DNA from: an uncultured Bifidobacterium sp.
GTDB taxonomy: Bacteria; Verrucomicrobiota; Verrucomicrobiia; Limisphaerales; JADLHS01
Length of the DNA stretch: 46,661 bases
Direction: 5' to 3'
NCBI GenBank assembly: GCA_964429665.1
Contig: CAYSDO010000002.1
Coordinates: 1-46,661, forward strand
How positions within the stretch are numbered: the first letter of the stretch is position 1; every line of letters starts with the position of its first letter. Shown here piece after piece: positions 697 through 39,476 of this stretch. A program made the position numbers and the translations under genes. The notes under the pieces are model-generated. The model worked only from the letters and a program-made list of their open reading frames with translations, ran no database searches and had not been told where the DNA came from.

Positions 697-699
697 CCA

Positions 700-1737: not shown

Positions 1738-1778
1738 GGCCCGGATAAGATGTTCAGCATCTGACCCACCGGATGCTT

Positions 1779-2127
1779 GGTAGTCCCGTCGTTCGTAGTC
1801 AGTAGTCCCAATTTCTGCTTTCTGTTTTTTATATTTCTGCTTTGTAATGCGCGCATGTCAGCATTTCAGTTTGTCAGCCTGTCAGCTTTTGTGGTCCGTG
1901 TGTCAGTCGTCCCGTGGTCTTGTCCTCCGATTTCTACTTTCTGTTTTCACACTTTCAGTCTTTCAGTATGTCAGCTTTTTGCTTTGTAGTCTGTGGTCAT
2001 TTCACATTTCTGCTTTCCTTGGCCCGTGAAGTGTGCCGTTTACTGCTTCACAGGGCTGTTCTCCCAATTTCAGCGTTTCAGCGTTTCAGCGTTTCAGCGT
2101 TTCAGCGTTTCAGCGTTTCAGCTTTTG
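1779..2127 (+). repeat. mosaic repeat block A (GTAGTCC, TTTCTGY, GTCAGC/TTTCAGC modules and one hairpin module)
   Basis: Direct reading: gtagtcccgtcgttcgtagtcagtagtccc / aatttctgctttctgtttttt / catgtcagcatttcagtttgtcagcctgtcagc / hairpin 2021-2056 / octamer run. Lies between the divergent GH5 and AraC genes. Confidence 0.9.
2071..2126 (+). repeat. perfect tandem octamer (CAGCGTTT)x6 plus one variant copy
   Basis: Counted base by base: CAGCGTTT at 2071, 2079, 2087, 2095, 2103 and 2111; variant CAGCTTTT at 2119. Confidence 0.95.
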
Positions 2128-2456
2128 CCCGTGCGTCCCTTTTATGCATGTTGGCCGTACCGCTCACACCGCTCCCAAGGTAAATACCCTCAGTAAATAT
2201 ACTGATCCTGATCCGTTAAAGCCGCTGATTGATGGCACACGAAGTCCGGCGTATGATCTGCAATGCCTTTGACATCAGTGCATAATATAACAATGTGAAC
2301 CGTTTGTCCTGTTCGACTTTCCCGTCCGCTTTTTCTTTTACTGGGTAATGAAAGAAACGTTCTTCAATCCTCAAGGCCCAAATATGTATGGACACTTGGG
2401 ACTTGCTGGACTTAAATCAAGCCAAGTTCAAAACCAATCTCATTCTCTCGAAGTAA

Positions 2457-3647: not shown

Positions 3648-3662
3648 GTTCCCTCCAATTTT

Positions 3663-6013: not shown

Positions 6014-6066
6014 GATGGAAACCCTGAGCCCATGATACGATCAACCCAGGTAAAAATAAAGAACCC

Positions 6067-8205: not shown

Positions 8206-8218
8206 ACAATGTAGCCAC

Positions 8219-8412
8219 CGTGGAGCGCCGGCCTCCGGCCCGGCCTGTTCCTGGTTCGGTGGAGCGCTGGCCTCCGGGCCGGCTGTTCCTGGTTTGGTAG
8301 TTTGGCGGTTTGACGGACTCGGTCGTCCTCTGGTGTTTGCTTGGTGTCGTTCGTGTGTTTTGTGGTCCAAAGCGCACAGTGGAGCGCCAGCCTCCGGGCC
8401 GGCCTGTAGTTG
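8219..8412 (+). repeat. three copies of a GC-rich palindromic unit GTGGAGCGCYGGCCTCCGGGCCGGC(C)TGT
   Basis: Copies at about 8219-8258, 8259-8297 and 8379-8412, starting 14 nt after the kinase stop. Each has an internal CCGGCC..GGCCGG stem. A related copy lies at 34673-34695. Confidence 0.8.
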
Positions 8413-8597
8413 GGTCGGCGAAGTTTGAATTTTTGAATTGGTGATCGTTGGAATGAGTGGATGGACAATCAGAACGGAGGCCCCGTTTGAGTCTCGATTC
8501 CGCACAACCATGACCAGACATATCCGTGTACGGTTCGCAGTAGATCGCAGGCCCGACACAAGACCGCCTGCGAATTGACCGGGACGAAGTCTGCCTA

Positions 8598-8655
8598 GGG
8601 AAAAACAGAAAGTAGAAATTGGAAAAGCTGAAACTCTGAAAGCTGAAATCTACTC
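8598..8655 (-). repeat. mosaic repeat module in inverted orientation (GCTGAAA / AGAAAG)
   Basis: gggaaaaacagaaagtagaaattggaaaagctgaaactctgaaagctgaaatc is the reverse complement of the TTTCAGC + TTTCTAC modules. It is the only inverted copy seen in the window. Confidence 0.85.
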
Positions 8656-8690
8656 CATCACCCGGTTTTTCTGTATAAACGCGTAGTTTG

Positions 8691-8789
8691 ACAGCCTTTC
8701 AGCCTTTCAGCCTTTCAGTTTGTCAGCCTTTCAGTATTTCAGTTTGTCAGCATTTCAGCGTGTCAGCATTTCAGTTTGTCAGCCTTTCA
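8691..8789 (+). repeat. mosaic repeat block B (TTTCAGC/GTCAGC modules incl. (CAGCCTTT)x3 at 8692-8715)
   Basis: cagcctttcagcctttcagcctttcagtttgtcagcctttcagtatttcagtttgtcagcatttcagcgtgtcagcatttcagtttgtcagcctttcac. Confidence 0.9.
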
Positions 8790-8802
8790 CAATCTAATAA
8801 AA

Positions 8803-9165
8803 ATGAGGCTGTCTGAAGAATTGAGGCGACGAACGAAGCGATACGCATCGGCGACGATTCAGCTGTATGTGAAGCTGCCCCGCGGGCGCAAAGAAGTTGA
8901 AGTGCTCGGTCACCAATTATTGCGCTCCGGCACGTCCGTTGCCGCCCATGCCAGAGAGGCATCCCGCGCACGCTCAGACAGCGAGTTTTGCTCGAAATTG
9001 GACGGACTACTTCAAGAAGCGGACGAATCCGGGCTCTGGTTGGAATTGCTGCGGGATGATTGTGCGATCGAAGGTGAAAACCTCGATCACTTGGTGCGCG
9101 AAACCGACGAACTGCTCGCCATCTTCACCACCATGGTTGCAAAACTCCGCAAGCGCGCCGCTTAA
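8803..9165 (+). CDS. four-helix-bundle protein (23S rRNA intervening-sequence protein / Avd-like family)
   Basis: MRLSEELRRRTKRYASATIQLYVKLPRGRKEVEVLGHQLLRSGTSVAAHAREASRARSDSEFCSKL..EADESGLWLELL matches the characteristic pattern of this family. The track ORF starts at 8776 on a repeat-borne ATG; ATG 8803 is preferred. Confidence 0.8.
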   Translation: MRLSEELRRRTKRYASATIQLYVKLPRGRKEVEVLGHQLLRSGTSVAAHAREASRARSDSEFCSKLDGLLQEADESGLWLELLRDDCAIEGENLDHLVRETDELLAIFTTMVAKLRKRAA

Positions 9166-9216
9166 TTTCAGATTGCCAGCCTTTCAGCGTTTCAGCCTTT
9201 CAGCGTTTCAGCCTTT
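9166..9216 (+). repeat. mosaic repeat block C: (CAGCSTTT)x5 ending 6 nt before the exosortase ATG
   Basis: Octamers at 9177, 9185, 9193, 9201 and 9209 (alternating CAGCCTTT/CAGCGTTT); ATG at 9223. Confidence 0.9.
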
Positions 9217-9222
9217 AACGTA

Positions 9223-11145
9223 ATGTCCGTCTTCCGTCAATTGGCCCTTCCCCTCGCCCTCTTCTCCATCCTCTGGGTGGATCTCTGCCGTCAGCTCAGC
9301 TACACATGGGACACCAACGAACAATACGCCTATGGTTGGTTCGTTCCATTGCTCGCCCTCGGCCTGTTCATTCGCCGCTGGCCCACCCGCCCATCCCCCC
9401 AACCCACAGCATTTCAAGGTTTCAGCGTTCCAGTATCTGCCTTGACCGCTTCCCCAATTTCAGCGTTTCAGCGTTTCAGCATTTCAGCATTTGTCTTCCT
9501 GCTTTGCCTTTTACTGCTCCCCCTCCGCGTCATCATTGAGATCAACCCGGATTGGCCGCTCATCACCTGGCCCTACACACTCATCGTCGTCGCCCTCACA
9601 CTCTACGCCATCCACCTCGCCGGTCCGAGGTCTTCACCCCGTGAGATGTCCGGACCGGCTATCTCACCGGGGTCAGCGTTTCGCCGTTTCATTTCTGTTT
9701 TCAACTTTCTCAATTTCCGCTTTTCCCCTCGTCCTCCGTCCTCCGTTGTCGGTGGTCCATCACCCGAGTCTCCTAACCCTATTTCTGCTTTCTACTTTCA
9801 TAATTTCCGCTTTTTCAAGCTCTCCCCTTGGGTGGCCCACTTCGCCTTCCCCGTATGCTTCATCTTGGTCGCCGTCCAATGGCCCTACCGGATCGAGCAC
9901 GGCCTCACCCAGAACCTCATGCAGATCGTCGCCTCCCTCACCGTCGAGATCATCGGCTGGTGCGGCATACCCGCAATCCAGCAGGGCAACCTGATCGAAC
10001 TGAGCACAGGTGTCCTCGGCGTGGACGAAGCCTGCAGCGGCATCCGCTCCTTTCAATCCACGTTGATGGCCGCACTATTCCTTGGCGAACTATATCTGCT
10101 TCGTGTCCCGATCCGGTTGTTGCTCGTCGTGGCTGGCCTGGGCGCAGCCTTCCTGTTAAACGTCTGCCGCACACTTATCCTCACTTGGCAGGCAAATGCG
10201 CACGGACTGTCGGCAATTGACAAATGGCACGACCCGGCCGGCTTCACCATCGCCATCGCCTGCTTCGGCGTCCTCTGGCTCCTCGCCATCCTCATCAAGA
10301 AGCGCTGGCCCGTTCCTGATCCTCAACCATCCTCGTCCGACATTGATCCGTCGTCCTCGGCCCGTGAGATGGCCACTCGGCCCGCGGAATCAGTTCGATA
10401 TTCCACCGGGTCGCCTATCTCACCGGGGCAGCTTTCTGCTTTCCCAATTTCTGCTCTCTGCTTTCACCCCTGCCGCCATTACCTCCTTATTATTTCCTGC
10501 TGGGTTGTATTCGTGGTCCTGGGTAATCAAATATGGTACGGGATGCATGCGCGAAAAGTGGATGCTTCGCTCCGGTGGTCCGCCATGCTTCCCTCCAAAA
10601 AAAGCACCTACAAAGAACTGACCCTCACTCCAAAGGAACTGGCAGCACTAAAGTGCGACACTAGACAAGGTGGTTCATGGAGGGAGGCTGATGACACGCA
10701 ATGGGCAGTCTGGTTCTTTCGGTGGGATTCCCAGTCCCTGCTTTCACTGGTGGCTGCCCGTTGCCATCGCCCGGAAGTTTGCTTGCCTGCAAGCGGACGC
10801 AAGATGAAGGCCGATCACGGCCTTCGTTGGTACAAAGCGGGTGATCTTAGTCTTCCATTTCGCACTTACGAATTCGATAACGGCGATCAACCGCTGTATG
10901 TCTTCTTCTGCCTCTGGCAGGATGGCACCGAGCAGTTGCCGGTTAAGGACAACCTTGCCTTGGCGGGCCGACTGTGGGCCGCATTCAACGGCAGGCGAGC
11001 TCTCGGCCAGCAAAGTCTGGAAATCATCATCAGCGGCGACTCCTCTTTTGATGCTGCAGAGCAAGCCGTGCGCGAGCGTCTGCCGGGGTTGATTCGGATT
11101 GAACCGCCTGCTCCACTGCGGCAAAGTGCTGTGAACTCCCGATAA
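9223..11145 (+). CDS. exosortase (EpsH/Xrt family) fused to a C-terminal EpsI-like domain; carries three repeat-derived in-frame segments
   Basis: LSYTWDTNEQYAYGWFVP (N-terminal motif), GVDEACSGIRS (catalytic Cys), NVCRTLILTW (Arg) and KWHDPAGF (His). The C-terminal ~200 aa contain CHRPEVCLPASG, resembling the EpsI HxPxxCLPGxGW motif. Confidence 0.85.
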   Translation: MSVFRQLALPLALFSILWVDLCRQLSYTWDTNEQYAYGWFVPLLALGLFIRRWPTRPSPQPTAFQGFSVPVSALTASPISAFQRFSISAFVFLLCLLLLPLRVIIEINPDWPLITWPYTLIVVALTLYAIHLAGPRSSPREMSGPAISPGSAFRRFISVFNFLNFRFSPRPPSSVVGGPSPESPNPISAFYFHNFRFFKLSPWVAHFAFPVCFILVAVQWPYRIEHGLTQNLMQIVASLTVEIIGWCGIPAIQQGNLIELSTGVLGVDEACSGIRSFQSTLMAALFLGELYLLRVPIRLLLVVAGLGAAFLLNVCRTLILTWQANAHGLSAIDKWHDPAGFTIAIACFGVLWLLAILIKKRWPVPDPQPSSSDIDPSSSAREMATRPAESVRYSTGSPISPGQLSAFPISALCFHPCRHYLLIISCWVVFVVLGNQIWYGMHARKVDASLRWSAMLPSKKSTYKELTLTPKELAALKCDTRQGGSWREADDTQWAVWFFRWDSQSLLSLVAARCHRPEVCLPASGRKMKADHGLRWYKAGDLSLPFRTYEFDNGDQPLYVFFCLWQDGTEQLPVKDNLALAGRLWAAFNGRRALGQQSLEIIISGDSSFDAAEQAVRERLPGLIRIEPPAPLRQSAVNSR

Positions 11146-29289: not shown

Positions 29290-30555
29290 ATGAAGGTTTG
29301 GATTCTCAAGGATGCCGAACCCCTGCCGTTGAAACCCGGCCAGCGGGCGTTGCGCTCCGGATTGCTCGCCCAGGAACTGGGTCGGCGCGGACACAATGTA
29401 GTCTGGTGGACCAGCACCTTCTCGCATCACCTTAAGCAGTTCATTTTCGAGCAGGACACCCGTCTCGAGTTGATGCCCAATGTCACGCTGCTCGCGCTGG
29501 ATGTCGGACGTTATCAGCGCAATGTCTCGTTCGCTCGCTTGCGCCATCATCGCCGGCTCGGACGCCGATTCCAGAAGCTGGCCGTCAGCGAATCAAAGCC
29601 GGACATCATCGTCAGCACACTGCCCATCATTGACTTTCCATTTGAGGCCGCAGGCTTTGCCTCCAGTCGCGACATTCCACTACTCGTGGATGTGCGGGAT
29701 CCGTGGCCGGATGTCTTCGTTGATAAATCGCCCGCACTTTTAAGACCCTTGGTGCGCTGGCTTACCTGGACCGAACGTCGCCGCGCGGCTCACGCGCTTA
29801 AATGCGCCGCTTCTTTGACGGCTGTCTCCAATGGTTTTCTCCGCTGGGCGCTCGGTCTGGCGGAACGGCGTCAAACTCGACAAGACCGTGTGTTCTACTT
29901 GGGGCATTCCGGATTTGAAACCGCCGCGCCGGACTCATCACAGCCATCGAAAATGCTTGCTCAACTGGACGGGAAATTGGTCTTCACATTTGTCGGGACC
30001 TTCGGCCACTCCTACGAAGTCGAACTGATTGCCCGGGCGGCGCAGTATTTTGGCACGCATCACCCGGATATCGCGTTTGTGCTCGTCGGAGATGGTCACC
30101 AGCGGGAAATCCTTCACCAAAAGTATGCCGGCCTTCCAAATCTCTTTCTGACCGGCTGGCTGGACACCCCGGAGATTGCGGCGCTACTTGCCCAATCCCA
30201 TGTCGGCCTTGTTCCATGTCGCAGTCTGCCCGACACGGTGCCCAACAAGCCGTTCGAGTACATGGCCGCCGATCTGCCACTCCTCAGTTCCTTGCAAGGT
30301 GAAATGGCGGAGATGATTGAAACACTTGGTCTGGGTCTTTCCTACCGCGCAGGAGATTTGGACGGGTTCATCCAAGTCGCGGAGCGTGTCTGGCGCGATC
30401 GCCCGGCCCTTGCTCGTTGGTCCGCCAATTCAAAAAAGGCATTCAATGAAAAGTTCAGTGCCGCCAGAATTTACCCCGACTTTGCCAGCCACATCGAACT
30501 TATCCATTCCTTGTCGCGCAGCGACCGCCCTGTAACCGCCCTTCCCGTCGCCTGA
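29290..30555 (+). CDS. glycosyltransferase (GT-B, WcaI-like GT4)
   Basis: MKVWILKDAEPLP..., LVFTFVGTFGHSYEVELIARAA...VLVGDGHQRE...GLVPCRSLPDTVPNKPFEYMAADLPLLSSL. Confidence 0.85.
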   Translation: MKVWILKDAEPLPLKPGQRALRSGLLAQELGRRGHNVVWWTSTFSHHLKQFIFEQDTRLELMPNVTLLALDVGRYQRNVSFARLRHHRRLGRRFQKLAVSESKPDIIVSTLPIIDFPFEAAGFASSRDIPLLVDVRDPWPDVFVDKSPALLRPLVRWLTWTERRRAAHALKCAASLTAVSNGFLRWALGLAERRQTRQDRVFYLGHSGFETAAPDSSQPSKMLAQLDGKLVFTFVGTFGHSYEVELIARAAQYFGTHHPDIAFVLVGDGHQREILHQKYAGLPNLFLTGWLDTPEIAALLAQSHVGLVPCRSLPDTVPNKPFEYMAADLPLLSSLQGEMAEMIETLGLGLSYRAGDLDGFIQVAERVWRDRPALARWSANSKKAFNEKFSAARIYPDFASHIELIHSLSRSDRPVTALPVA

Positions 30556-31030
30556 CCCTGCTTTCTGTTTTCTGCTTTCTATTTTCTCAATTTCTGTTTT
30601 GTAATGTCAGGTTTCAGAATCTCAGCCTTTTAGCTTTTCAGCATGTCAGCTTTTGTTTGGTCGTCCGTCGTCCGTCGTCCGTTGTCCGTGGACCTTGGCC
30701 CGTGAAGTCCTGTCCCTCTACTTCACTGGGTCCGGCCCGTGAAGTCCTGTCCCTCTACTTCACTGGGTCCGGCCCGTGAAGTGTGCCGTTTTACTTCACC
30801 GGCCTGCTTTCCATATTTCTGTTTTGAAATGTCAGCGTGTCACCTTGTCAGCATTTCAGAATCTGGCGTGTCCCGTAGTCCGTAGTCAGTTGTCCGTGGT
30901 CCCGATTTCTACTTTCTGTTTTCCTAATTTCTCTTTTGTTTTGGTCCGTAGTCAGTAGTCAGTAGTCATTTCTAATTTCTGCTTTCCCAATTTCAGATTT
31001 TTAGTTTGTCAGCATTTCAGCTTTTGCTTT
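30556..31030 (+). repeat. mosaic repeat block E (largest contiguous block; all four module types)
   Basis: Begins 1 nt after the GT stop and ends at the GTG start of the next gene. Order: ctgctttctgttttctgctttctattttctc.. / ..tttcagaatctcagcc..cagcatgtcagc / gtcgtccgtcgtccgtcgtccgttgtccgtgg / three hairpins / further TTTCTGY, GTCAG and GTAGTCA runs. Confidence 0.95.
30697..30804 (+). repeat. triple tandem of the hairpin module (two exact 37-nt copies plus one loop variant)
   Basis: ggcccgtgaagtcctgtccctctacttcactgggtcc at 30697-30733 and 30734-30770; ggcccgtgaagtgtgccgttttacttcaccggcc at 30771-30804. Confidence 0.95.
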
Positions 31031-32077
31031 GTGTCCCCATCCCCCGCCATCTTCCTCGTCTCCACCGCCACTTGCTGGTTGTTGGGATTCGCCGTGTACC
31101 GGCTTCTGAGCCATTATCGCATCATCGATTCCCCAAATTCTCGCTCCAGCCACACACACCCCACCGTTCGTGGCGGCGGTATCGCCATCATCGCCACCTT
31201 GGTGGGTGTCGGCACATGGCTCATCACCCGGTCCGAAGCTCAGCCCCTGTTAATGGTTGGCTTGTGCATGCTGGCGCTGGCGGTTGTTTCCTTCATCGAT
31301 GACCTGAAATCAATACCGGTCGCCATCCGACTTGGTTGCCATCTCCTCGCGGTACTGGTGGCTTGGGTTGCGCTGGGAATATCCGGCATCACTCTGGGAT
31401 TCTCAACCGACACGGGCCTGCGCTTGCCGTGGGTTGCCGGCGGGTTTCTTGGTTGTCTCTGGATCGTCGGATACACCAACGCCTTCAATTTTATGGACGG
31501 CATAAACGGCATCGCCGCTGGTCAGGCTGCTCTTACCGGGTTGGGCATGGCATTGCTGGCCGGTTTAACCCTCGGTGATTTCACCAGCACACCCGTATTG
31601 TTGAGTTTGGCCCTAGCCGGTGCGGCCCTCGGGTTCCTCCCGCACAACTTCCCCTGCGCCCGCATGTTCATGGGCGATGTCGGAAGCGCGCCACTGGGTT
31701 TCCTGTTGGGTGTCATGGTTGTTTGGCTGGCCAGGATTGCGGGCGGATGGCTGCTCATCCCGCTCGCTTTGCTCCACGCCAATTTTGTTTTGGACACCGC
31801 CATCACCCTCGTCCGCCGCGTTGCTCGCGGTGATAAGTGGCATCAGGCTCATCGCGAACACTTCTACCAGCGGCTCGTCCGCTCCGGCAAAAGCCATGCA
31901 TTTGTGACCGGTTGCGAACTCTTGCTCCAGATCCTCGTCCTGGGCTTGATGGTGCTCTATCTCCACGCCAGTGTGCCCGTGCGATTAGGTTTGGTCGTCG
32001 TCGTGATTCTCATCTGGCTGTCCTTTTTTGCCTTCTGCGAAATCTCTTTCCGCCGCCGCCAACTCTCTGATCTCTGA
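31031..32077 (+). CDS. undecaprenyl-phosphate HexNAc-1-phosphate transferase (MraY/WecA/WbpL family, Glycos_transf_4); initiating enzyme
   Basis: IIDSPNSRSSHTHPTVRGGGIAI, GYTNAFNFMDGINGIAAGQA, LPHNFPCARMFMGDVGSAPLGFLLG; about 10 TM segments; GTG start. Confidence 0.9.
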   Translation: MSPSPAIFLVSTATCWLLGFAVYRLLSHYRIIDSPNSRSSHTHPTVRGGGIAIIATLVGVGTWLITRSEAQPLLMVGLCMLALAVVSFIDDLKSIPVAIRLGCHLLAVLVAWVALGISGITLGFSTDTGLRLPWVAGGFLGCLWIVGYTNAFNFMDGINGIAAGQAALTGLGMALLAGLTLGDFTSTPVLLSLALAGAALGFLPHNFPCARMFMGDVGSAPLGFLLGVMVVWLARIAGGWLLIPLALLHANFVLDTAITLVRRVARGDKWHQAHREHFYQRLVRSGKSHAFVTGCELLLQILVLGLMVLYLHASVPVRLGLVVVVILIWLSFFAFCEISFRRRQLSDL

Positions 32078-32395
32078 TGTCAATTTTAGCCCGGATTATT
32101 TCAGCGTTTGAGTATTTCAGCTTTCTGTTTTCTGCTTTCCATATTTCTGTTTTTTTGTGTTTGGTTTCAGCATTTCACTTTTCAGTATCTCAGTTTTTCA
32201 TTCGTGCTAATTCGTGAAATTCGCGTCTCACCTGGGCCCGTGGAGTGGCCCTTCGCCCGTTATCCTTGGCCCGTGAAATGGCCATGCATTTCACTGGGCC
32301 GTATTTCAGCTTTTGCCTTGTGTGATTTCTGCTTTCTACTCTCTGCTTTGGTCGTGACTGTTTCAGCTTTCAACTTTTTGACTTGGTCCATCCGT
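32078..32395 (+). repeat. mosaic repeat block F (TTTCAGC, TTTCTGY, an ATTCGTG motif, hairpin 32268-32300 and a degenerate hairpin 32234-32259)
   Basis: atttcagcgtttgagtatttcagctttctgttttctgctttcc...ttcattcgtgctaattcgtgaaattcgcg...ttggcccgtgaaatggccatgcatttcactgggcc...gatttctgctttctactctctgc. Confidence 0.9.
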
Positions 32396-32424
32396 GATCG
32401 AATCGCGTTTTATAGTCTAGGTTT

Positions 32425-32871
32425 ATGAATCAACCCACCGAAGATTTGAAATTGATTCACGGCGGACAACACTCCGACGCTCGCGGCTCCATTGCTTTCG
32501 TGAATGGATTCAATTTCAAGGGTGTGGACCGCTTCTACTGGATCACAGCGGAGGCGACAAACACACAACGCGGCTGGGTGGGCCATCGCCGGGAGCAAAA
32601 ATGGTTTACCGTACCCCAGGGAGAAGTGCTGATTGCAGCAGTCAAACCGGATGATTGGGAGCGACCGGATAGGAATCTGCCCGTGGCAAGGTATCTTCTT
32701 TCTGCAACCCAACCGCAGGTGCTTCATGTGCCGCCGGGCTACGCGACGGCCAGCGTGAACCTACACCCCCACGCGGTGCTCATGGTCTTTTCCTCAGGCA
32801 GAATTGAAGACGCCAAAACTGACGACTTTAGATTCCCGCTGGATCATTGGCCAATTCAGGCTGCCCCCTGA
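32425..32871 (+). CDS. WxcM/FdtA-like cupin (putative NDP-4-keto-6-deoxyhexose 3,4-isomerase)
   Basis: HSDARGSIAFVNGFNFKGVDRFYWITAEATNTQRGWVGHRREQKWFTVPQGEVLIA...LHVPPGYATA fits the D.RG...R.f....RG.H.H cupin pattern of this family. Confidence 0.65.
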   Translation: MNQPTEDLKLIHGGQHSDARGSIAFVNGFNFKGVDRFYWITAEATNTQRGWVGHRREQKWFTVPQGEVLIAAVKPDDWERPDRNLPVARYLLSATQPQVLHVPPGYATASVNLHPHAVLMVFSSGRIEDAKTDDFRFPLDHWPIQAAP

Positions 32872-33412
32872 TTTCTGCTTTCTGTTTTCTAAATGTTAGC
32901 ATTTGTATTGAGACCGCAATTCAGGTTTCAGAATCTCAGCCTTTCAGCATTTGTTTTTGGCCGCTTTCTACTTTCTGCTTTCTTGATTTCTGTTTTGCAA
33001 TGTCAGCCTGTCAGGATTTCAGCATTTCAGATTTTTGCTTCTTGCTTTGTAGTCCGTGGACCTTGGCCTGTGAAGTCTGCCGTTTACCGCTTCATTGGGC
33101 TGTTCTCCCACTTTCAGCTTTTCAGTATGTCAGCATTTCAGCTTTTTCGATTTTTGCTTCGTAGTCAGTGGTCAGTTGTCCGTGGTCCCAATTTCAGCTT
33201 TCTGCTTTCTTAATTTCTGTTTTGCAATGTCAGCCTGTCAGGATTTCAGCTTTTCAGCGCTTCAGCTTTTTGCTTTATGGTCCGTTGTCCTTATTTCTGC
33301 TTTCTGCTTTCCCAATTTCTGTTTTGAAATGTCAGCGTGTCAGCCTGTCAGGATTTCAGCTTTTCAGCATTTGTTTTTGGCCGCTTTCTCCCTTCCCAAT
33401 TTCTAATTTTGC
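32869..33412 (+). repeat. mosaic repeat block G (~540 bp; starts on the TGA of the preceding gene)
   Basis: Repeated units of gatttctgctttctgttttc / gtttcagaatctcagcctttcagc / ttgcaatgtcagcctgtcaggatttcagc (three near-identical copies at about 32995, 33225 and 33330) / gtagtccgtgg / hairpin 33065-33100. Confidence 0.95.
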
Positions 33413-33477
33413 ATTGGACCGCCATTGTCCTACCCTCAATGTTAATTTCGACGTCAAAAATAAATGAAAGGATCAAT

Positions 33478-33888
33478 ATGACCGACATCGAAACTCAGCA
33501 GCGCTTCGTCTTCCTCCGCTCTCAGGGCTGGAGCTTTGCCCGCATCTCCGAGGACCTCAAGGTCTCCAAACCCACGCTCATCAACTGGAGCCGCAAATTC
33601 CAGTTCGACATCCAGAACCAGCGCGCCATCAACATCGAGGCCCTCCAGGAAAAATGGCTCTCCACGCGCGATGTCCGCGTCAACGCCCTCGGTGAAAATC
33701 TCCGCAAGGTCGAGGCCGAACTCGCAAAGCGCGATCTCACCACCGTGCCTACGCGCCAGTTGTTCAGTCTGGCCGGCTCGTTGCGCCGCGAGATCAAACA
33801 CGAAACGGGGACCTTGCAATTCACATCACCCATTTCCCAGATCCCCAACGATGAATACCACGAACAAGTCCAGGACTGGAACCCTTGA
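33478..33888 (+). CDS. small HTH-domain protein (function unknown) followed by a coiled-coil segment
   Basis: AAGGA lies 6-10 nt upstream of ATG 33478. FVFLRSQGWSFARISEDLKVSKPTLINWSRKF is a canonical HTH, then ...LRKVEAELAKRDL. The track ORF 33337.. starts on a repeat-borne ATG. Confidence 0.6.
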   Translation: MTDIETQQRFVFLRSQGWSFARISEDLKVSKPTLINWSRKFQFDIQNQRAINIEALQEKWLSTRDVRVNALGENLRKVEAELAKRDLTTVPTRQLFSLAGSLRREIKHETGTLQFTSPISQIPNDEYHEQVQDWNP

Positions 33889-33985
33889 GGCGTGCGCTCC
33901 GATGGTAGGGCGTGTCGCGCTGCGACCGCCTTCCCTGGCGCATGTCTGCCGTTCGAGAATTTCGGCATTTGGATGTTGGGTATTT

Positions 33986-34306
33986 GGTCGTCCCATCGTC
34001 CCCAATTTCCCCATGTCAGATTTTCAGTATGTCAGTATGTCAGCATTTGTTTGGTCGTCCCATCGTCCGTGGTCCATGGTCATTTCGTATTTCTGCTTTC
34101 TTTATTTCTGTTTTGCAATGTCAGTTTGTCAGCCTTTCAGCCTTTCAGCATTTGTTTTTGACCGCTTTCTACTTTCCTTGGCCCGTGAAGTCCTGTCCCT
34201 TACTTCACCAGGCTGCTTTCCCAATTTCAGTTTGTCAGCCTTTCAGCCTTTTGCTTTCTGCTTTCTGCTTTCCCAATTTCTGTTTTGAGACAAATGTCAG
34301 CTTTTT
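33986..34306 (+). repeat. mosaic repeat block H
   Basis: ggtcgtcccatcgtcccc / atgtcagattttcagtatgtcagtatgtcagc / ggtcgtcccatcgtccgtggtcc / atttctgctttctttatttctgttttgcaatgtcag / cagcctttcagcctttcagc / hairpin 34180-34213 / ctttctgctttctgctttcccaatttctg. Confidence 0.95.
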
Positions 34307-34314
34307 AGAATGCA

Positions 34315-34584
34315 ATGCGTAACCTGACCCACAATCTTAGCCGCAATGCGACCCGGTACACCACGCGCATGATCGGCGGCCTCCGACGCCCGCCCCAGCC
34401 GGACTATTTGGGCATCGCCTGCCGCGCCTTCGAAAAAGTCTATGAGATTGATCGGCGGCTTCAGCCCTACATCCAGGAACAGATCCGCCTGCAGAAGCAA
34501 CGCGCTTTCGAAGCACAGATTGATGCCGCCCTCGACCGCGTTTACGGCCCGGAAACGAAGCAACCAGATGCTGGTCCGCAGTAG
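34315..34584 (+). CDS. hypothetical small protein (89 aa)
   Basis: ORF lies in unique, non-repeat sequence between two repeat blocks and has an ordinary amino-acid composition (..ACRAFEKVYEIDRRLQPYIQEQIRLQKQRAFEAQIDAALDRVYG..). No recognisable family. Confidence 0.35.
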   Translation: MRNLTHNLSRNATRYTTRMIGGLRRPPQPDYLGIACRAFEKVYEIDRRLQPYIQEQIRLQKQRAFEAQIDAALDRVYGPETKQPDAGPQ

Positions 34585-34823
34585 GTCCCGTTCCCTTTTC
34601 CGCATCCAATGGGAAGAGATTCATCAGATCCCGATTTGCGCCATTAACCCATGAACCGGGGCGCTATGCCTGGGAGCGCTGGCGTCCCGCCGGCGAGTTG
34701 CACTCGGGCCAACAGTCCCGGACCGCGGGCGGTCCCTCGCCCGCAGCGCACCCACCGCTTTCAACCGGCAGGGATTCGTCAAAGTCGCCACAGATGAGCG
34801 ATGATAAGCGCAGATTAGTGGTT

Positions 34824-34983
34824 CAATTTCAGCTTTTGCTTGGTAGTCCGTGGTCAGATGTCCATGGTCATTTTGGATTTCTACTCTCTGCTTTTGATAT
34901 TTCTACTTTTGTTTGGTCGTCCCGTTGTCCGTTGTCCGTGGTCCCAATTTCAGCTTTCTGCTTTCCCAATTTCTGTTTTGTTT
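34824..34983 (+). repeat. mosaic repeat block I-1
   Basis: caatttcagcttttgcttggtagtccgtggtcagatgtccatggtc...atttctactctctgc...ggtcgtcccgttgtccgttgtccgtggtcccaatttcagctttctgctttcccaatttctgttttg. Confidence 0.9.
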
Positions 34984-35076
34984 AGAAAATCGAATCCGGT
35001 AAAGAAATGGTAAACAAACGGTAAAGTTTTCCCCCAATCCCGGACCTCTCAATCTTAATCCCAATCACGCTGGCTG

Positions 35077-35212
35077 GATTTCAGCTTTTCAGCATGTCAG
35101 CATTTCAGCTTTTGTTTGGTCGTCCGTTGTCCATTGTCCGTAGTCCGTCGTCCGTGGTCCCAATTTCTACTTTCTGCTTTCTCAATTTCTGGTTTTCAGT
35201 ATCTCAGCGTTT
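35077..35212 (+). repeat. mosaic repeat block I-2, ending 6 nt before the DUF218 ATG
   Basis: gatttcagcttttcagcatgtcagcatttcagcttttgtttggtcgtccgttgtccattgtccgtagtccgtcgtccgtggtcccaatttctactttctgctttctcaatttctgg. Confidence 0.9.
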
Positions 35213-35217
35213 AACTG

Positions 35218-36000
35218 ATGTCCTTCCTCTACTCCATTCTCCTTAAGCTGCTCTATCCCACCTCGCTTTGCGTCCTCCTGCTCCTGGCGGCAGCGGTCTT
35301 TCGCAAGCGCCAGAAGGCACGCCGCATCTGTTTCAGTCTCGCTATCCTCATCCTGCTCGTCTGCGGCAATGGCTGGGTGGTAAAATATTCCACGCGTTAT
35401 CTGGAATCGCAGTATCCACCTCTGCCCTCGGGCAGTTCAGTTGCTGCCGATTGCATCCTGGTGCTGGGTGGCGGCACTTCCGAAAAGATTCCCCCACGAC
35501 CAACCGTCGAGGTGGGTGAAGCCGGTGACCGCGTCCTCTACGCGGCGCACCTCTTCCGCGCTGGGAATGCACCAAGTATCCTCTGCACGTCAGGGATAGC
35601 AACGGGTGGCAACGGCCCGCGGCCCGCCGCGAATAACATGGCAGAATTGCTTCGGGACCTAGGTGTGCCTGAAAGCGCAATCATCCGGGAAACCGCCTCC
35701 CGCAACACGCACGAGCACGGGGACAACCTGCTTCCAATGCTGAAGCAAAAGGGGATCAAGCGCATGATTCTGGTAACCTCCGCCGCGCACATGCCCCGCT
35801 CAATGGGTGTGTTCAAAAAATCCTGTCCCGGCATCGAGTTCATCCCCGCACCCACGGATTTCCGCATCGTCGAACTCGATTTGCCGTGGTATAGGCAACT
35901 CGTCAACCTGATCCCCACACCCGGCAACCTCGTCCAGTTCTCAGAGACAATGCACGAATATCTCGGCATGGCCTATTATCGGCTCAGAGGCTGGCTATAG
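35218..36000 (+). CDS. YdcF/ElyC-like DUF218 protein (envelope/polysaccharide-related)
   Basis: Two N-terminal TM segments. ADCILVLGGG...APSILCTSG...MILVTSAAHMPRSMGVFKK matches the DUF218 core pattern. Confidence 0.85.
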   Translation: MSFLYSILLKLLYPTSLCVLLLLAAAVFRKRQKARRICFSLAILILLVCGNGWVVKYSTRYLESQYPPLPSGSSVAADCILVLGGGTSEKIPPRPTVEVGEAGDRVLYAAHLFRAGNAPSILCTSGIATGGNGPRPAANNMAELLRDLGVPESAIIRETASRNTHEHGDNLLPMLKQKGIKRMILVTSAAHMPRSMGVFKKSCPGIEFIPAPTDFRIVELDLPWYRQLVNLIPTPGNLVQFSETMHEYLGMAYYRLRGWL

Positions 36001-36050
36001 TCACAATCCATCGCTTACTCCTGCTCTTAACCTGGTACCCTGTCGTGGCG

Positions 36051-36332
36051 CTGTTTTCCAAATTTCAGATTCTCCGCCTTTGCTTCTTTGCCCCGTGGTC
36101 AGTGGTCATTTCTGCTCTCTGCTTTTCCAATTTTTTGATCCGTGGTCAACAGCCAGATTTCTGCTTTCTACTTTCCCGATTTCAGATTTTCAGTTTGTCA
36201 GCATTTCAGCTTTTGTTTTGTCGTCCCGTCGTCCGTCGTCGTTAGTCCGTTGTCATTTCTACTTTCTGTTTTCCCAATTTCTGTTTTGAAATGTCAGTTT
36301 GTCTGCTTTTCAGCATTTGTTTTTGGCCGCTT
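36051..36332 (+). repeat. mosaic repeat block J
   Basis: ctgttttccaaatttcagattc...ccgtggtcagtggtcatttctgctctctgc...gatttctgctttctactttcccgatttcagattttcagtttgtcagcatttcagc...gtcgtcccgtcgtccgtcgtcg...atttctactttctgttttcccaatttctgttttgaaatgtcag. Confidence 0.9.
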
Positions 36333-36794
36333 TTGAAATCTCTATCCCAAACCTGTCTCCGCTTCGTTCTGGCCCTCTACACCGGCCTGCTCTTGTACGT
36401 CACCCTTTGGCCGTTCCAGTTCACCTCCCATCCCGGACGCAACACAACAAACCTCAAGAGACATGTCGAATGGATTCCTTTCACAAGGTTGTGCCCGAAC
36501 CACGGCCTCTTCTGCCCGCGCGACACCGGTTTGAACCTCGCAATGTTCCTCCCCTTCGGCGCCTTGGTAGCCTTGATGTCTTCAGCTGAGATTGGCCGGA
36601 TGCGCCGCGTTGTTCGCGCTGCCGCCTTGGGTTTCAGCCTCAGTTTGCTGATCGAGACTACACAGTATTTCATACCCGTCCGTTATCCCAGCACCACCGA
36701 CCTCTTGTTGAACACGTTGGGTGCGGGTCTGGGCGGGCTCGTCGTTTTCACCACTTCCAAAACCAGGCCATTGAAAATGCCGCATCAACCATAA
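36291..36794 (+). CDS. VanZ-family membrane protein
   Basis: LLYVTLWPFQF...WIPFTRL...NLAMFLPFGALVAL...SLLIETTQYFIPVRYPSTTDLLLNTLGAGLGGLV. ATG 36291 is repeat-borne (aaATGTCAG module), so the real start may be the in-frame TTG at 36333 (MKSLSQTCLRF..). Confidence 0.8.
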   Translation: MSVCLLFSICFWPLLKSLSQTCLRFVLALYTGLLLYVTLWPFQFTSHPGRNTTNLKRHVEWIPFTRLCPNHGLFCPRDTGLNLAMFLPFGALVALMSSAEIGRMRRVVRAAALGFSLSLLIETTQYFIPVRYPSTTDLLLNTLGAGLGGLVVFTTSKTRPLKMPHQP

Positions 36795-36799
36795 GGTGT

Positions 36800-37120
36800 T
36801 TGATGTTTTGGAGCTTTGAGTTTGGTATTTGCTGTTTAGTTTTTGCAGTTCGGGATTTGGTGTTTGGTGTTTTGCCAGTCCGTGGTCCGTGGTCGCGTAG
36901 TCCGTGGTCCCAGTTTCTGCTCTCTGCTTTTCATATTTCTGCTTTTGCTTGCTAGTCCCGTTGTCCGTGGTCATTTTGTTTTTCTACTCTTTGCTTTTGT
37001 TATTTCAGATTTTCAGCATGTCAGCATTTCAGCATTTGCTCTGTTGTCCGTGGTCCCGATTTCTACTTTCTGCTTTCCATATTTCAGATTTTCAGTTTGT
37101 CAGCCTTTCAGCTTTTGCCT
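36800..37120 (+). repeat. mosaic repeat block K (GT-rich TTTGGTG leader, then GTCCGTGG, TTTCTGY and TTTCAGC modules)
   Basis: ggtgtttgatgttttggagctttgagtttggtatttgc...gtccgtggtccgtggtcgcgtagtccgtggtccc...atttctgcttttgc...atttcagattttcagcatgtcagcatttcagc...gatttctactttctgctttcc...cagtttgtcagcctttcagc. Confidence 0.9.
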
Positions 37121-37257
37121 TTACCCGTCCGTACTCCATACCACCCACGTTCGCGATTTTATCCTGTTCCTCCCCAAGAAGTTTGCTTGAATGATGATCC
37201 TCATCAGGCCATGCTTTGAGATTCAGACACGGAAATCAGTGACGATCAAGGAATTGA

Positions 37258-37542
37258 TTGATGTTGTACCCGGCTCTTAAGCGTTGTTTCGATTTGGTGA
37301 TGGCCGGCCTGGGGCTGCTGCTTTTGCTGTGCATGCGGCGGCTCCTCGGCCAAGTCGTGAGACTTTTGGATGGCAGCCTTGTTTCTTTCACCAGTGTTGG
37401 TATCGCCTGGCTTGGTCACCCCCTTAGTATCCATGAATTCGTATCCGTGGTTTTTGGTACAGATAAGTGCGACACATCGTTCACCAAGGAGAGTGGTGAC
37501 CTGCGAATGCATTCGATCTCCCGACTACTGTTCGCTGTATGA
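37258..37542 (+). pseudogene. truncated/degenerate N-terminal fragment of a bacterial sugar transferase (PglC/WbaP/EpsB-type, PF02397-like)
   Basis: LKRCFDLVMAGLGLLLLL...LLDGSLVSFTSVGIAWLGHPLSIHEFVSV parallels the family N-terminus KR.FD + TM + ..GsvlFtQ.R.G..Gk.F.iyKFrtM. It ends at 94 aa before the catalytic region, and its stop overlaps the CapD start (ATGA). Confidence 0.55.
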
Positions 37543-39476
37543 AACTGAATCTCTTCGACTATTCACCACCAGTCCGGGTGTGGCTTTTGTTTTTACTCTA
37601 CACCATTGAGCTGACCGCCAGCCTTTGGTTGGCGTACGAACTGCGCTTTGATTTCATGATGGAGTCCGCTGTCCAGCACGAGCGGCTCATCGTTCTGATG
37701 TGGTTGGTGCCTCTGCAGTTGATCCTTCTCGGGCTTTTCCACCAGCTTAGTTCGTTGCTGGGCTATTTCAGCACGCCGGACCTCGCTCGCATGTTCCACG
37801 CCCTCACCATCAGTGCGGTCGTGGCTGGAATAGTGTGGATGATTTGGGGTATCGGGTTTGCGCCTCCCCGTGGTGTCATCGCGATTGATTTTGTATTCGC
37901 CCTGGTTGGCTTGACCGGCGTACGCCTGGCCATGCGAACCCTGCGCGAATCCTTGAGCGTTCAAGGCAGGAAAAGCGGACAGCGACAACGGCGCGTGGCC
38001 ATCATCGGCGCCGGAGATGCCGGTGCGTTGCTGGCTCATGAGCTCGCACTCAAACCCGGTTGCGGCCTCCATCCCGTGGCCTTCTTCGATGACGACCAGC
38101 ATAAATGGAATTCACGCGTGCATGATATTCCGGTTCTGGGGCCGCCGGAACGATTGACCGAGGTGAATGCCAAACTCGACATCCAGGAGGCCATCATCGC
38201 CATGCCCTCGGCATCCGCCAAACGAATTGGCGAAGTGGTCCGGCTCCTGCGCCTCGCGCGCCTCCCTTGCAAGACCATTCCATCACTGGATCAACTCGCC
38301 CTCGGACAGGTTCGTGTCACCCAGTTGCGCAATGTCGAGGTTTCAGACCTCCTCGGACGTGAACGGGTCGAATTGGAAACGGAAAGCATTCGCCTGGCTC
38401 TTAAGGATCGCGTCGTCCTCGTCTCCGGCGCTGGTGGAAGCATCGGAAGCGAACTGTGCCGCCAGATCGCCACTTATGAACCCAGACAATTGCTCCTGCT
38501 GGACCGTGCGGAGCCAAGCCTATTTCAGATCGAACAGGAGTTGATCGGGTTGGAACATGGGCAGCGGCTCGTCCCCTTGGTTGCTGATATTCTGGATCGC
38601 GCAAGGATGGATCAGATTTTTTCGCGCTTCCATCCTGAAGTGGTCTTTCATGCCGCCGCCCACAAGCATGTACCGATGATGGAGCATCAGCCGGGCGAGG
38701 CGGTCAAAAACAACTGCCATGGCACGGCACAGTTCGCCGACCTCGCACTCGAGTTCGGTGTGGATCGTTTCATCCTGATTTCCTCGGACAAGGCCATCAA
38801 CCCGACCAGCGTCATGGGAGCCACTAAACGTCTGGCGGAGATGTACGTTCAGGCCCTCTTCGCGGCAAATCCCACCCGGACAAAATTCATGGCCGTACGC
38901 TTCGGCAATGTCCTGGGATCCTCCGGCAGCGTGATCCCTCTCTTTCACAAACAAATCGCCGAGGGCGGCCCGGTCAAGGTCACCCACCCAGACATGACCC
39001 GGTATTTCATGACCATCCCGGAGGCTTCAATGCTAGTCCTCCAAAGCGCGATCCAAGGCACTGGTGGCGAAATCTTCGTGCTCGATATGGGCAAGCCGGT
39101 CCGCATCGTGGATCTGGCCCGGCAGATGATTGAACTGAGCGGGCTCAAGCCGGATGAGGACATTCAGATCGAGTTTATCGGCACGCGACCCGGCGAAAAA
39201 CTCTTCGAGGAGGTCACCCACAAGGGCGAGAACTTTGCCCCGACCACCCATCCCAAAATCTGCCGGTTTATCTCCCAGCCATTGGAGTTGATTTCACTTC
39301 GCAAAACACTTCAGTCACTGGTTGCGGAGATTCATCAGAACGGTCCGGAACAGATCAAGCGGCTGATGCGCGATGCCATACCGGATTATACACCCTATTT
39401 GACCGCGCCCGAACCCGCTCCATCCAAAATCACGCACCTCAAGGAATTCGAACGCCAGGCAGACCAGCGCCATTAA
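37539..39476 (+). CDS. membrane-anchored NDP-sugar 4,6-dehydratase/epimerase (CapD/WbpM/PglF family)
   Basis: Four N-terminal TM segments, RVAIIGAGDAGALLA, VLVSGAGGSIGSELCRQI (Rossmann), FHAAAHKHVPMME, SSDKAINPTSVMGATKRLAEMY. Confidence 0.92.
   Translation: MKLNLFDYSPPVRVWLLFLLYTIELTASLWLAYELRFDFMMESAVQHERLIVLMWLVPLQLILLGLFHQLSSLLGYFSTPDLARMFHALTISAVVAGIVWMIWGIGFAPPRGVIAIDFVFALVGLTGVRLAMRTLRESLSVQGRKSGQRQRRVAIIGAGDAGALLAHELALKPGCGLHPVAFFDDDQHKWNSRVHDIPVLGPPERLTEVNAKLDIQEAIIAMPSASAKRIGEVVRLLRLARLPCKTIPSLDQLALGQVRVTQLRNVEVSDLLGRERVELETESIRLALKDRVVLVSGAGGSIGSELCRQIATYEPRQLLLLDRAEPSLFQIEQELIGLEHGQRLVPLVADILDRARMDQIFSRFHPEVVFHAAAHKHVPMMEHQPGEAVKNNCHGTAQFADLALEFGVDRFILISSDKAINPTSVMGATKRLAEMYVQALFAANPTRTKFMAVRFGNVLGSSGSVIPLFHKQIAEGGPVKVTHPDMTRYFMTIPEASMLVLQSAIQGTGGEIFVLDMGKPVRIVDLARQMIELSGLKPDEDIQIEFIGTRPGEKLFEEVTHKGENFAPTTHPKICRFISQPLELISLRKTLQSLVAEIHQNGPEQIKRLMRDAIPDYTPYLTAPEPAPSKITHLKEFERQADQRH

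Follow-up and report, generated by a model that had tools for sequence, protein, structure and literature searches.

The stretch of DNA analysed here (contig CAYSDO010000002.1, 46,661 nt, taken at its full length and called the window below) carries a repeated hairpin of about 36 nt, which we regard, with a probability of about 0.6, as a miniature non-coding repeated DNA element of Verrucomicrobiota whose unit spreads within genomes. The feature itself is real and statistically solid. It is a discrete unit with defined ends, a recurrent short target, tandem and segmental duplications, a tolerance for loops of coding sequences, and a bulged stem that undergoes compensatory changes. We infer that the hairpin spreads as DNA; the best class for it is that of a Verrucomicrobia-wide miniature hairpin repeat, probably mobile, of a kind that is in itself familiar.

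A preliminary description of the window had listed a set of copies on the + strand, all of which were recovered at their positions without any others being added. The covariance model used for this purpose, R1, was seeded with 9 window copies and 18 foreign copies and was run over the whole window with filters off: it recovers ten + strand sites at 32-41 bits (starting at 2021, 9636, 10379, 13998, 30697, 30734, 30771, 32268, 33065, and 34180) and nothing else above noise. The same ten sites read on the minus strand reach at most 24 bits, the element being therefore asymmetric and its orientation well defined. The outer copy at 10359-10428 is not seen by R1 because another copy fills its loop. 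The window total is thereby 11 copies (10 intact copies and the outer one that carries a nested copy), together with one orphan 5' arm. All the copies lie on the + strand, a uniformity which is local to this window, orientation relative to genes being mixed in the rest of the family. Independently of the model, the 5' arm GGCCCGTGANNT, allowing at most one mismatch, occurs 15 times for 3.9 expected, and 15 occurrences were reached in 0 of 100 shuffles. The exact tandem duplicate that had been announced is confirmed by the tandem-repeat program TRF, which reports a 37-nt unit in 2.3 copies with 100% identity at 30697-30782. The features are listed below with R1 scores in bits and RNA folding z-scores against shuffled sequences where available; an uninterrupted target motif, a simple-repeat array, and the open reading frame (ORF) hosting several copies are added at the end.

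2021..2056, + strand: hairpin copy in the divergent spacer upstream of the AraC-type gene; 39.7 bits; RNA z -3.5
9636..9672, + strand: hairpin copy with the GAGAT/ATCTC stem variant, inside the exosortase ORF, in-frame reading SPREMSGPAISPG
10359..10428, + strand: outer hairpin GTGAGAT/ATCTCAC in the exosortase ORF, with a complete second copy within its loop
10379..10411, + strand: inner nested hairpin GCGGAAT/ATTCCAC, with CTC on its 5' side; 35.4 bits
13998..14030, + strand: decayed copy with two mismatches in the DegT-flippase spacer; 36.8 bits; RNA z -0.55
30697..30733, + strand: tandem unit one of a direct array of three hairpins, in the spacer from a GT4 gene to the WecA-like gene
30734..30770, + strand: tandem unit two, exact 37-nt repeat of the unit 30697..30733
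30771..30804, + strand: tandem unit three, with a distinct loop GTGCCGTTTT, then TGCTTTCCATATTTC; RNA z -5.4
32235..32246, + strand: orphan 5' arm GGCCCGTGGAGT, 3' partner arm absent
32268..32300, + strand: hairpin copy with the GTGAAAT/ATTTCAC stem variant, matched by R1; RNA z -4.9
33065..33100, + strand: hairpin copy with three G-T pairs; 32.1 bits
34180..34213, + strand: hairpin copy splitting CTTTC|TGCTTTCCCAATTTC, between the helix-turn-helix (HTH) gene and the 88-aa gene
34261..34280, + strand: uninterrupted ("empty") target motif CTTTCTGCTTTCCCAATTTC, one of 12 such window sites, all on the + strand
2068..2126, + strand: simple-repeat array (TTTCAGCG)x7.4 from the tandem-repeat scan, an example of the hairpin surroundings
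9223..11145, + strand: exosortase (EpsH) ORF with three in-frame repeat insertions

Some details of the preliminary description had to be amended. The sequence at 32234-32259, taken there for a degenerate copy, is the lone 5' arm of the list, devoid of a partner, and copy 33065 contains three G-T pairs rather than the single one noted. The loops, given as 11-13 nt, actually range from 8 to 13 nt in the window and fall into at least three classes instead of two (GTGCCGTTT-like, CCTGTCCCT-like, and GGCC..GCCT-like), while TGYTTTCCCAATTTC, thought to follow the hairpins, does so after about half of the copies but not after the rest.

In the fold, a 12-bp stem (5 + 7 bp) has a single unpaired base in its 3' arm, a bulged structure on which the RNA and DNA energy models agree. 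Both the bulge and the stem variants GTGAAGT/ACTTCAC, GTGAGAT/ATCTCAC, and GTGAAAT/ATTTCAC are as first described. Compared to shuffled sequences, most copies are more stable as RNA, with z-scores of -1.7 to -5.4 (for the majority -2.7 to -5.4), copy 13998 being the exception at -0.55; as DNA, the eight sequences tested give -3.1 to -5.7. Folding is equally good on both strands with both parameter sets, RNA and DNA, so that folding energy favours neither strand, and neither RNA nor DNA. For the tandem triple (30693-30808), the lowest-energy fold is a nested three-tier stem of -54 kcal/mol rather than three hairpins side by side, which is possible because the three units share arms. The tandem and nested forms are, according to this folding model, energetically interchangeable.

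The pairing is also preserved when the sequence changes. Over 79 distinct R1 matches, 97.9% of the pair cells are paired, the independent variation of stem positions that would speak against a common fold is not seen, and neither column shuffles nor slid registers come near the observed pairing. Two-sided changes are found in 5 of 11 pairs (G-C to C-G, C-G to U-A, A-U to G-C twice, and G-C to A-U). The metagenome copies, gathered by a pattern that leaves three stem pairs free, are unbiased at stem positions 9-11; from them, 56 distinct family copies were recognised by a CTT, CTC, or CCT flank, one sub-family being excluded. At these positions, 165 of 168 cells are paired, as compared to 36% of cells in chance matches to the same pattern, and the triplets belong mainly to the classes AAG/CTT (33 copies), AAA/TTT (14), and GAA/TTC (3). 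In 92% of copies, a pyrimidine occupies the bulge. These counts have to be read with the caveat that the stem variants track the loop types, the independent events being few, with perhaps five or six founders. Taken together, the sequence comparisons argue that the fold is maintained beyond the sequence alone, in agreement with the preliminary description, whose wording of a "recognised structure" is reasonable given such maintenance. Besides, a sister sub-family, GGCCCGTGCAGT-GCGGAGCAA-ACTTCACTGGGC, shows a conserved C-U mismatch in the stem (GTGCAGT...ACTTCAC) and is flanked by AATCCGC/AATCCCT units in place of TTTCAGC units; among the collected loci, designated by L numbers, it occurs in L129, L138, L141, L143, L159, L184, L188, L197, L199, L203, L216, L220, L228, and others.

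The boundaries of the unit emerge from the flanks of 90 distinct copies, which read ...cTTTC-CTT, hairpin, WGCWTTTC, with CC at -4/-3 in 87% of copies and TT at -2/-1 in 85%/75%, and this holds across lineages with dissimilar simple repeats. To locate the junctions, the hairpin was deleted together with x upstream and y downstream bases, and the new 10-mer was sought elsewhere in the same locus. The peak lies at x = 3 and y = 0, with 14 of 86 copies, most other offsets giving 0-5; a second ridge of 9-11 copies at x + y = 10, that is 7 nt beyond CTT, was attributed to the removal of one additional 7-nt repeat unit. The junctions thus restored are TTTC^AGC and TTTC^TGC, i.e., intact simple repeat, and no duplicated target bases are required. 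In the same line, CTTTCTGCTTTCCCAATTTC, intact at its 12 window sites, is split at CTTTC|TGC by copy 34180, the split form CTTTC|CTT-hairpin|TGCTTTCCCAATTTC being exact there and present with mismatches at 2021; copy 2021 has CTTTC-CTT on its 5' side, and TGTTCTCCCAATTTC then (TTTCAGCG)x7 on its 3' side. The target would consequently be TTTC^WGC, entered without duplication, as deduced from paralogous sites rather than from orthologous empty ones.

Hairpins also interrupt one another. Complete copies lie within the loops of other copies in the window and in L153, L160, L025, and L178, the arms being self-matched at each level. The nested hairpin previously reported within 10359-10428 is one of these: its arms are AGA/TCT in the outer and GAA/TTC in the inner copy, which interrupts the outer loop at GGCCA^CGCCT. 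In loops of the GGCC-NN-GCCT type, the mid-loop insert is again CTY plus hairpin. L178 is nested three deep (GGAGT/ACTCC, GAAAT/ATTTC, and GGAAT/ATTCC), forming a three-tier stem of -60 kcal/mol with z = -5.5. Direct tandems comprise the three units of the window and runs of up to 4 adjacent units in L212, which has eight copies in about 2 kb. Larger modules are repeated as well, in the form of 102-nt and 147-nt composite tandem repeats (the 147-nt period in L230) and of a 70-nt module present twice in one L123 gene, in two loops. Orphan 3' arms and multiplied arms occur, in arrangements such as "())" and "()))". In a census of arrangements, 54 copies are solitary, and the remainder are direct tandems, nested copies, or orphan arms.

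Copies are present in genes too, where selection presumably governs their survival. The exosortase ORF of the window matches its Pfam model in two stretches and contains three in-frame repeat blocks: a TTTCAGC array (9411-9492) and two hairpin modules (about 9636-9830 and 10340-10470). When 14 exosortase homologues are aligned, such blocks are located in the variable loops that separate invariant membrane segments; inserts are absent from the short exosortases P0007, P0019, and P0112, and other homologues vary in the number, position, and orientation of theirs. The exosortases of the window, L121, L123, and L069 contain the hairpin in frame, read as PREMSGPAISPG in the forward and as RPSEVTERLHGPG in the reverse orientation, and among the sequences collected the GAGAT/ATCTC stem is confined to exosortase genes. 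A comparable situation is found in DegT aminotransferases: that of L200 is longer than the window DegT by about 90 residues in the stretch from the DAAH motif to the PLP-lysine region, a reverse-oriented copy being part of the insert, and that of L201 has its Pfam match split by two enclosed reverse-oriented copies. Another dispersed element, read in frame as ...LRLDRGEGQGEVS..., is seen in unrelated genes, in the DegT insert of L200 (around 2100-2400) and in P0019, P0005, and P0052.

Positions and orientations differ between loci. In the syntenic locus L256, whose WecA-like protein is 78% identical, the spacer between the glycosyltransferase (GT) gene and the WecA-like gene has no hairpin, the sole L256 copy lying elsewhere; this counterpart of the triple-hairpin spacer holds a 23S_rRNA_IVP gene bracketed by reverse-oriented simple repeats. 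Orientation is mostly uniform per contig. Within stop-to-stop ORFs, 10 copies are sense and 9 antisense, with reverse-oriented copies inside ORFs of L123, L200, and L201; other copies are antisense to both neighbouring genes (L160, L191, and L201). This pattern is unlike that of a transcript-bound signal and would fit a replication-strand bias.

Outside the window, a scan with loose criteria over one genome per species mostly listed unrelated palindromic terminators of Actinobacteria or chance matches in coding sequences, about 15 of the 120 matches listed being genuine family members. The one match listed from the 10.5-Mb Limisphaerales chromosome OZ245740.1, L047, also resembled a chance match in a coding sequence. 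The genome matches that share flanks and stem with the window come from metagenome-assembled genomes (MAGs) labelled Verrucomicrobiota, Verrucomicrobia subdivision 3, Terrimicrobiaceae, and Limisphaerales, and one subdivision 3 MAG accounts for nine contigs among the matches listed (L033, L034, L039, L049, L081, L102, L111, and two others). Two further carrier contigs, with surroundings that look alike, are binned as Terriglobia and Bifidobacteriaceae and may be misbinned. The metagenome scan with three free stem pairs yielded at least 120 loci, soil, peat, wetland, and lake samples contributing most of them, and R1 matches in the collected Verrucomicrobial and metagenome loci amount to 93 + 31. 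By comparison, one match was obtained in 2.9 million viral contigs, and none by BLAST in plasmid and phage collections. Rfam 15 gives no match at the gathering score over the whole window, and an E-value search of 30400-37600 gives one chance match only. Literature searches brought up no account of repeats of this type in Verrucomicrobia or Pedosphaera; this widespread Verrucomicrobia family of tiny hairpin repeats is apparently undescribed so far. Two collected loci include stretches of several kb in which no ORF reaches 200 codons (L198 at 1-9499, with six hairpin copies, and the whole of L176, 5.4 kb, with three), all copies being on one strand within each.

A mobile hairpin of this kind could work as follows. 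The unit consists of CTT (less often CTC or CCT), then GGCCCGTGAAGT, a variable loop, and ACTTCAC-Y-GGGC. It would land after TTTC without target duplication, either in 7-8-nt arrays (TTTC^AGC, TTTC^TGC) or in the loops of earlier copies, and would then be amplified locally through tandem and segmental duplication. Copies in genes would persist only when the frame is kept and the loop is tolerant. The stem and its bulged pyrimidine may be kept because the copying machinery recognises only copies that can fold as a single strand, each successful stem variant founding a sub-family. As to the enzyme, our guess is that the most plausible candidate would be a transposase of the HUH/Y1 type, specific for hairpins and acting on single-stranded DNA. 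Enzymes of this sort place their elements 3' of a fixed tetranucleotide with no duplication and recognise imperfect hairpins with extrahelical bases; the elements known for them, however, have two end hairpins, or a GTAG/CGTC tag and inverted doublets, none of which this family shows. Side effects on the host transcript, such as an exonuclease barrier, may exist but would not be what maintains the family. More tentatively, the CTT-plus-hairpin unit of about 36 nt could be self-contained, mobile, and site-specific through a non-RAYT, non-IS200 hairpin-recognising enzyme or an RNA-templated route, with some copies, for instance the one that is identical in nucleotides between exosortase genes, co-opted as mRNA signals; this more specific version is possible but doubtful.

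Several observations weigh against a mobile DNA hairpin, and part of them would rather be expected of an RNA element serving the host, i.e., an intercistronic stabiliser or barrier to exonucleases, a site of processing, or one bound by a conserved RNA-binding protein, in the polycistronic transcript of the polysaccharide operon, for which spread in the genome would be secondary. The junction test is positive in no more than the 14 copies mentioned, and insertion polymorphism between near-identical strains was not shown, the nearest relative of the locus having about 78% protein identity: in orthologous filled/empty comparisons, L094/L205 and L172/L174 diverge or end short of the hairpins, while the overlap regions of L121/L122 and L123/L124 are identical. 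Nor was a mobilising enzyme found among the window ORFs scanned and the collected loci. Y1_Tnp has no match in these ORFs, and tblastn with an IS200 TnpA query, which is a weak test, has none in the collected loci; a transposase enclosed between inverted copies was also considered, but the genes so enclosed in L069, L200, and L160 encode exosortase, DegT, and UDP-glucose dehydrogenase. Furthermore, the 11 window copies without exception point the same way as the genes and are sense to the operon, copies between same-strand ORFs are 20 sense versus 7 antisense (many of the sense ones coming from the window), and polysaccharide genes make up about half of the neighbouring genes with an annotation. 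Counted on the strand of the element itself, there are 13 G-T pairs for 5 A-C mismatches, as expected of a transcribed or strand-specific fold, a count weakened by the fact that R1, with which the copies were collected, scores G-U above A-C and biases the set accordingly. Finally, the in-ORF 37-nt variant ACCCCGTGAGATGTCCGGACCGGCTATCTCACCGGGG is identical in the exosortase genes of the window, L121, and L123, and with its flanks 48 of 49 nt are identical between the window and L123, well beyond the coding background, the exosortase cores having 71-81% DNA identity. This identity would reflect either selection at the nucleotide level or homogenisation or recent spread; purifying selection on a function fits at least as well as recent spread. 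The covariation and the conservation of stem, bulge, and flanks across lineages with different surrounding repeats would suit an RNA role too. It is nevertheless disfavoured, together with the RNA-binding-protein site, processing site, and small structured RNA put forward in the preliminary description, by the copies that are antisense to both neighbours or lie in either orientation in coding sequences, by positions that are not conserved between syntenic loci, by the equally good folding of both strands, and by the failure of the suggested Rfam search to return a matching family. Nesting, orphan arms, and the copy-rich ORF-free stretches of L198 and L176 would likewise be unexpected for a site-specific RNA signal. 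An RNA role as the primary explanation therefore seems unlikely to us, although by analogy with the E. coli REPs, which combine spread in the genome with transcript roles, it would not be incompatible with mobility.

The repeats could also have arisen without any dedicated insertion, by slippage, template switching, and unequal recombination in simple-sequence arrays, one arm templating the other. The exact tandem duplicate, the orphan and multiplied arms, the 70-nt module duplicated in two loops of one gene, the 102-nt and 147-nt composite repeats, and the ability of the tandem triple to fold as a nest are all what such processes could leave behind. Quite unlikely in our estimation, this scheme has to accommodate a stem that is near-identical in lineages with differing simple repeats (TTTCAGC, TTTCGGN, AATCCGC), sharp boundaries of the CTT-plus-hairpin unit, a triple nesting of three self-matched variants, which is hard to produce in this way, and copies in non-repeat contexts inside DegT and exosortase genes. 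A site in duplex DNA is a very remote prospect: an inverted repeat GTGAAGT-N8-13-ACTTCAC bound by a dimeric DNA-binding or nucleoid protein would agree with the conserved half-site and variable spacer, and an AraC-type regulator is encoded in the locus, but the compensatory changes preserve complementarity and not a fixed half-site sequence, the conserved asymmetric bulge and the G-T pairs are meaningless in duplex DNA, and the 7-13-nt variation of the spacer, the nesting, and the in-ORF copies are unlike an operator. It is scarcely credible that the RNA of enzymes such as DegT loses its in-frame inserts ahead of translation. Three known kinds of feature were also rejected. A terminator scan calls none of the copies an intrinsic terminator, their tails (TGCTTTCC, TGTTCTCC, or AGCATTTC) having no U run and several copies lying in ORFs; a CRISPR array does not correspond to units that abut with 0-3 nt between them and no spacers; and the window has no curated-model match to a structured RNA described in Rfam.

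The favoured mobile hairpin resembles several known systems. The small dispersed repeats (SDRs) of Nostocaceae, as reportedly described by Elhai et al. in 2008, are tiny hairpins with compensatory changes that lie in heptamer/octamer arrays, are nested in one another, vary in presence between homologous genes, and insert at a specific short site; we know of no enzyme that mobilises them. Hairpins with compensatory changes, nesting, and 7-8-nt tandem surroundings are common to both. The SDRs, however, are 21-27 nt long and were reported only from Nostocaceae (PMC5861425). The Verrucomicrobiota unit, for its part, has 33-37 nt plus CTT, a bulged 12-bp stem, and an unrelated sequence.

The in-frame insertions in exosortase and DegT ORFs, with orthologues devoid of the insert, recall the Rickettsia palindromic elements (RPEs), which according to Ogata et al. 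in 2000 are said to insert in frame into coding genes and to be read through at tolerant positions. The RPEs are about 100-150 bp long and are not known to go with simple-repeat arrays or nesting, whereas the present unit is of about 36 nt, belongs to Verrucomicrobiota and not to Rickettsia, and is unrelated in sequence. IS200/IS605 elements and palindrome-associated transposable elements (PATEs) insert 3' of a fixed tetranucleotide without duplication, have a bulged single-strand hairpin recognised, and are oriented in a strand-specific manner; elements of the IS200/IS605 type possess two subterminal hairpins that differ from each other, and they either encode TnpA or depend on it. The present unit agrees with derivatives of this family (described in PMC6006769) in its insertion 3' of a short fixed target without duplication, as deduced above from paralogous sites, but it contains a single hairpin (about 33 nt + 3 nt), and the sequences scanned here yielded no transposase for it.

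Of the options in the preliminary description, a REP/RAYT-type substrate is the closest in behaviour, the reference being the repetitive extragenic palindromic (REP) sequences and REPINs mobilised by RAYT (Y1 HUH). Shared features are an imperfect palindrome of 20-40 nt in many dispersed copies, mostly in operon spacers, mosaic arrays with other short motifs similar to bacterial interspersed mosaic elements, a stem kept by compensatory change, and a single-strand hairpin as the plausibly recognised form. REPs are nonetheless defined by a GTAG or CGTC tetranucleotide at one end (PMC3733652), and the replicative unit of REPINs is an inverted doublet of two REPs (PMC3116915). The 90 distinct copies end in CTT-GGCCCG... 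and ...GGGC-WGC with no GTAG/CGTC at either foot, inverted doublets are absent since copies are solitary, in direct tandem, or nested, some copies lie within coding sequence, and no RAYT gene was seen among the window ORFs scanned and the collected loci. The family works most like SDRs, REPs, and, for its in-frame insertions, RPEs, yet is a member of none of them.

If confirmed, this phylum-wide family would be among the smallest mobile units known. With one stem shared by Limisphaerales-like, subdivision 3, and Terrimicrobiaceae MAGs, an inferable target, and clean nested products, it would offer a tractable case for the old question of how SDR-like hairpin repeats of less than 40 nt move; it lends itself well to studying the mobility of tiny elements by virtue of its clean insertion unit, its triple nesting, its invasion of enzyme genes, and a conservation that is phylum-wide. 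On the practical side, the repeats probably break Verrucomicrobia metagenome assemblies, and gene calls in the spacers are inflated because the T+C-rich arrays are without stop codons. Junk-like peptides (PREMSGPAISPG, FQLSAF, KQKAEI) in annotated proteins, including enzymes, are of relevance to annotators and structure predictors. The repeats may also promote recombination between the cassettes of polysaccharide loci.

The window itself covers an exopolysaccharide locus that belongs to the exosortase (EpsH) type, and nearly all of its genes lie on the + strand. They encode an AraC-type regulator, a beta-barrel protein, a Wza-like exporter, a chain-length/ATPase protein, the exosortase, acetyltransferases, a DegT aminotransferase, a flippase, many GT4 and GT2 transferases, Wzy, a WecA-like transferase, and a Polysacc_synt_2 protein. 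Homologues are labelled, e.g., Verrucomicrobia and Limisphaerales MAGs. The hairpins are embedded in 7-8-nt simple-repeat arrays. The long spacers, T+C-rich on the + strand, are almost wholly made of tandem units of this length (TTTCAGCN, TTTCTGC, GTCCGTN/GTCAGTN), stop-free in most frames, and in homologous proteins the simple repeats read FQLSAF or SAFCF forward and KQKAEI in reverse. Repeat-filled spacers are found, for instance, at 1853-2126, 8692-8789, 9166-9216, 30558-30689, 32100-32420, 32870-33410, 33960-34290, 34820-35210, 36180-36290, and 36795-37120.

Genes of the 23S_rRNA_IVP / Avd-like four-helix-bundle type share the repeat-filled spacers (window 8776-9165; L121 1211-1576 and 6025-6375; L123 5168-5551; L125 9512-9898; L160 3507-3872; L256 9509-9874), and in four loci such a gene lies immediately upstream of the exosortase gene. 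A conserved gene pair encodes a 136-aa HTH_23-like protein with a coiled-coil tail and a partner of 84-109 aa (window 33478-33885 and 34318-34584; L200 3581-3988 and 3269-3517). The HTH_23-like protein has 335 homologues, nearly all of 136 aa, some labelled transposase and many on very short contigs. The window pair (HTH gene of 136 aa and 88-aa gene, 33478-34584) was considered as a hairpin-associated factor and rejected, the other loci of the pair being without hairpins. A second, unrelated repeat, G+C-rich (GTGGAGCGCCGGCCTCCGGCCCGGC...), occurs in three copies downstream of the chain-length/ATPase gene at 8216-8264, 8255-8303, and 8375-8423, with a simple-repeat block in reverse orientation just past it at 8600-8650. 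Finally, the Wza-like export ORF (4988-6013) contains a (CTCAACC)n / 35-nt tandem repeat at 5228-5311.

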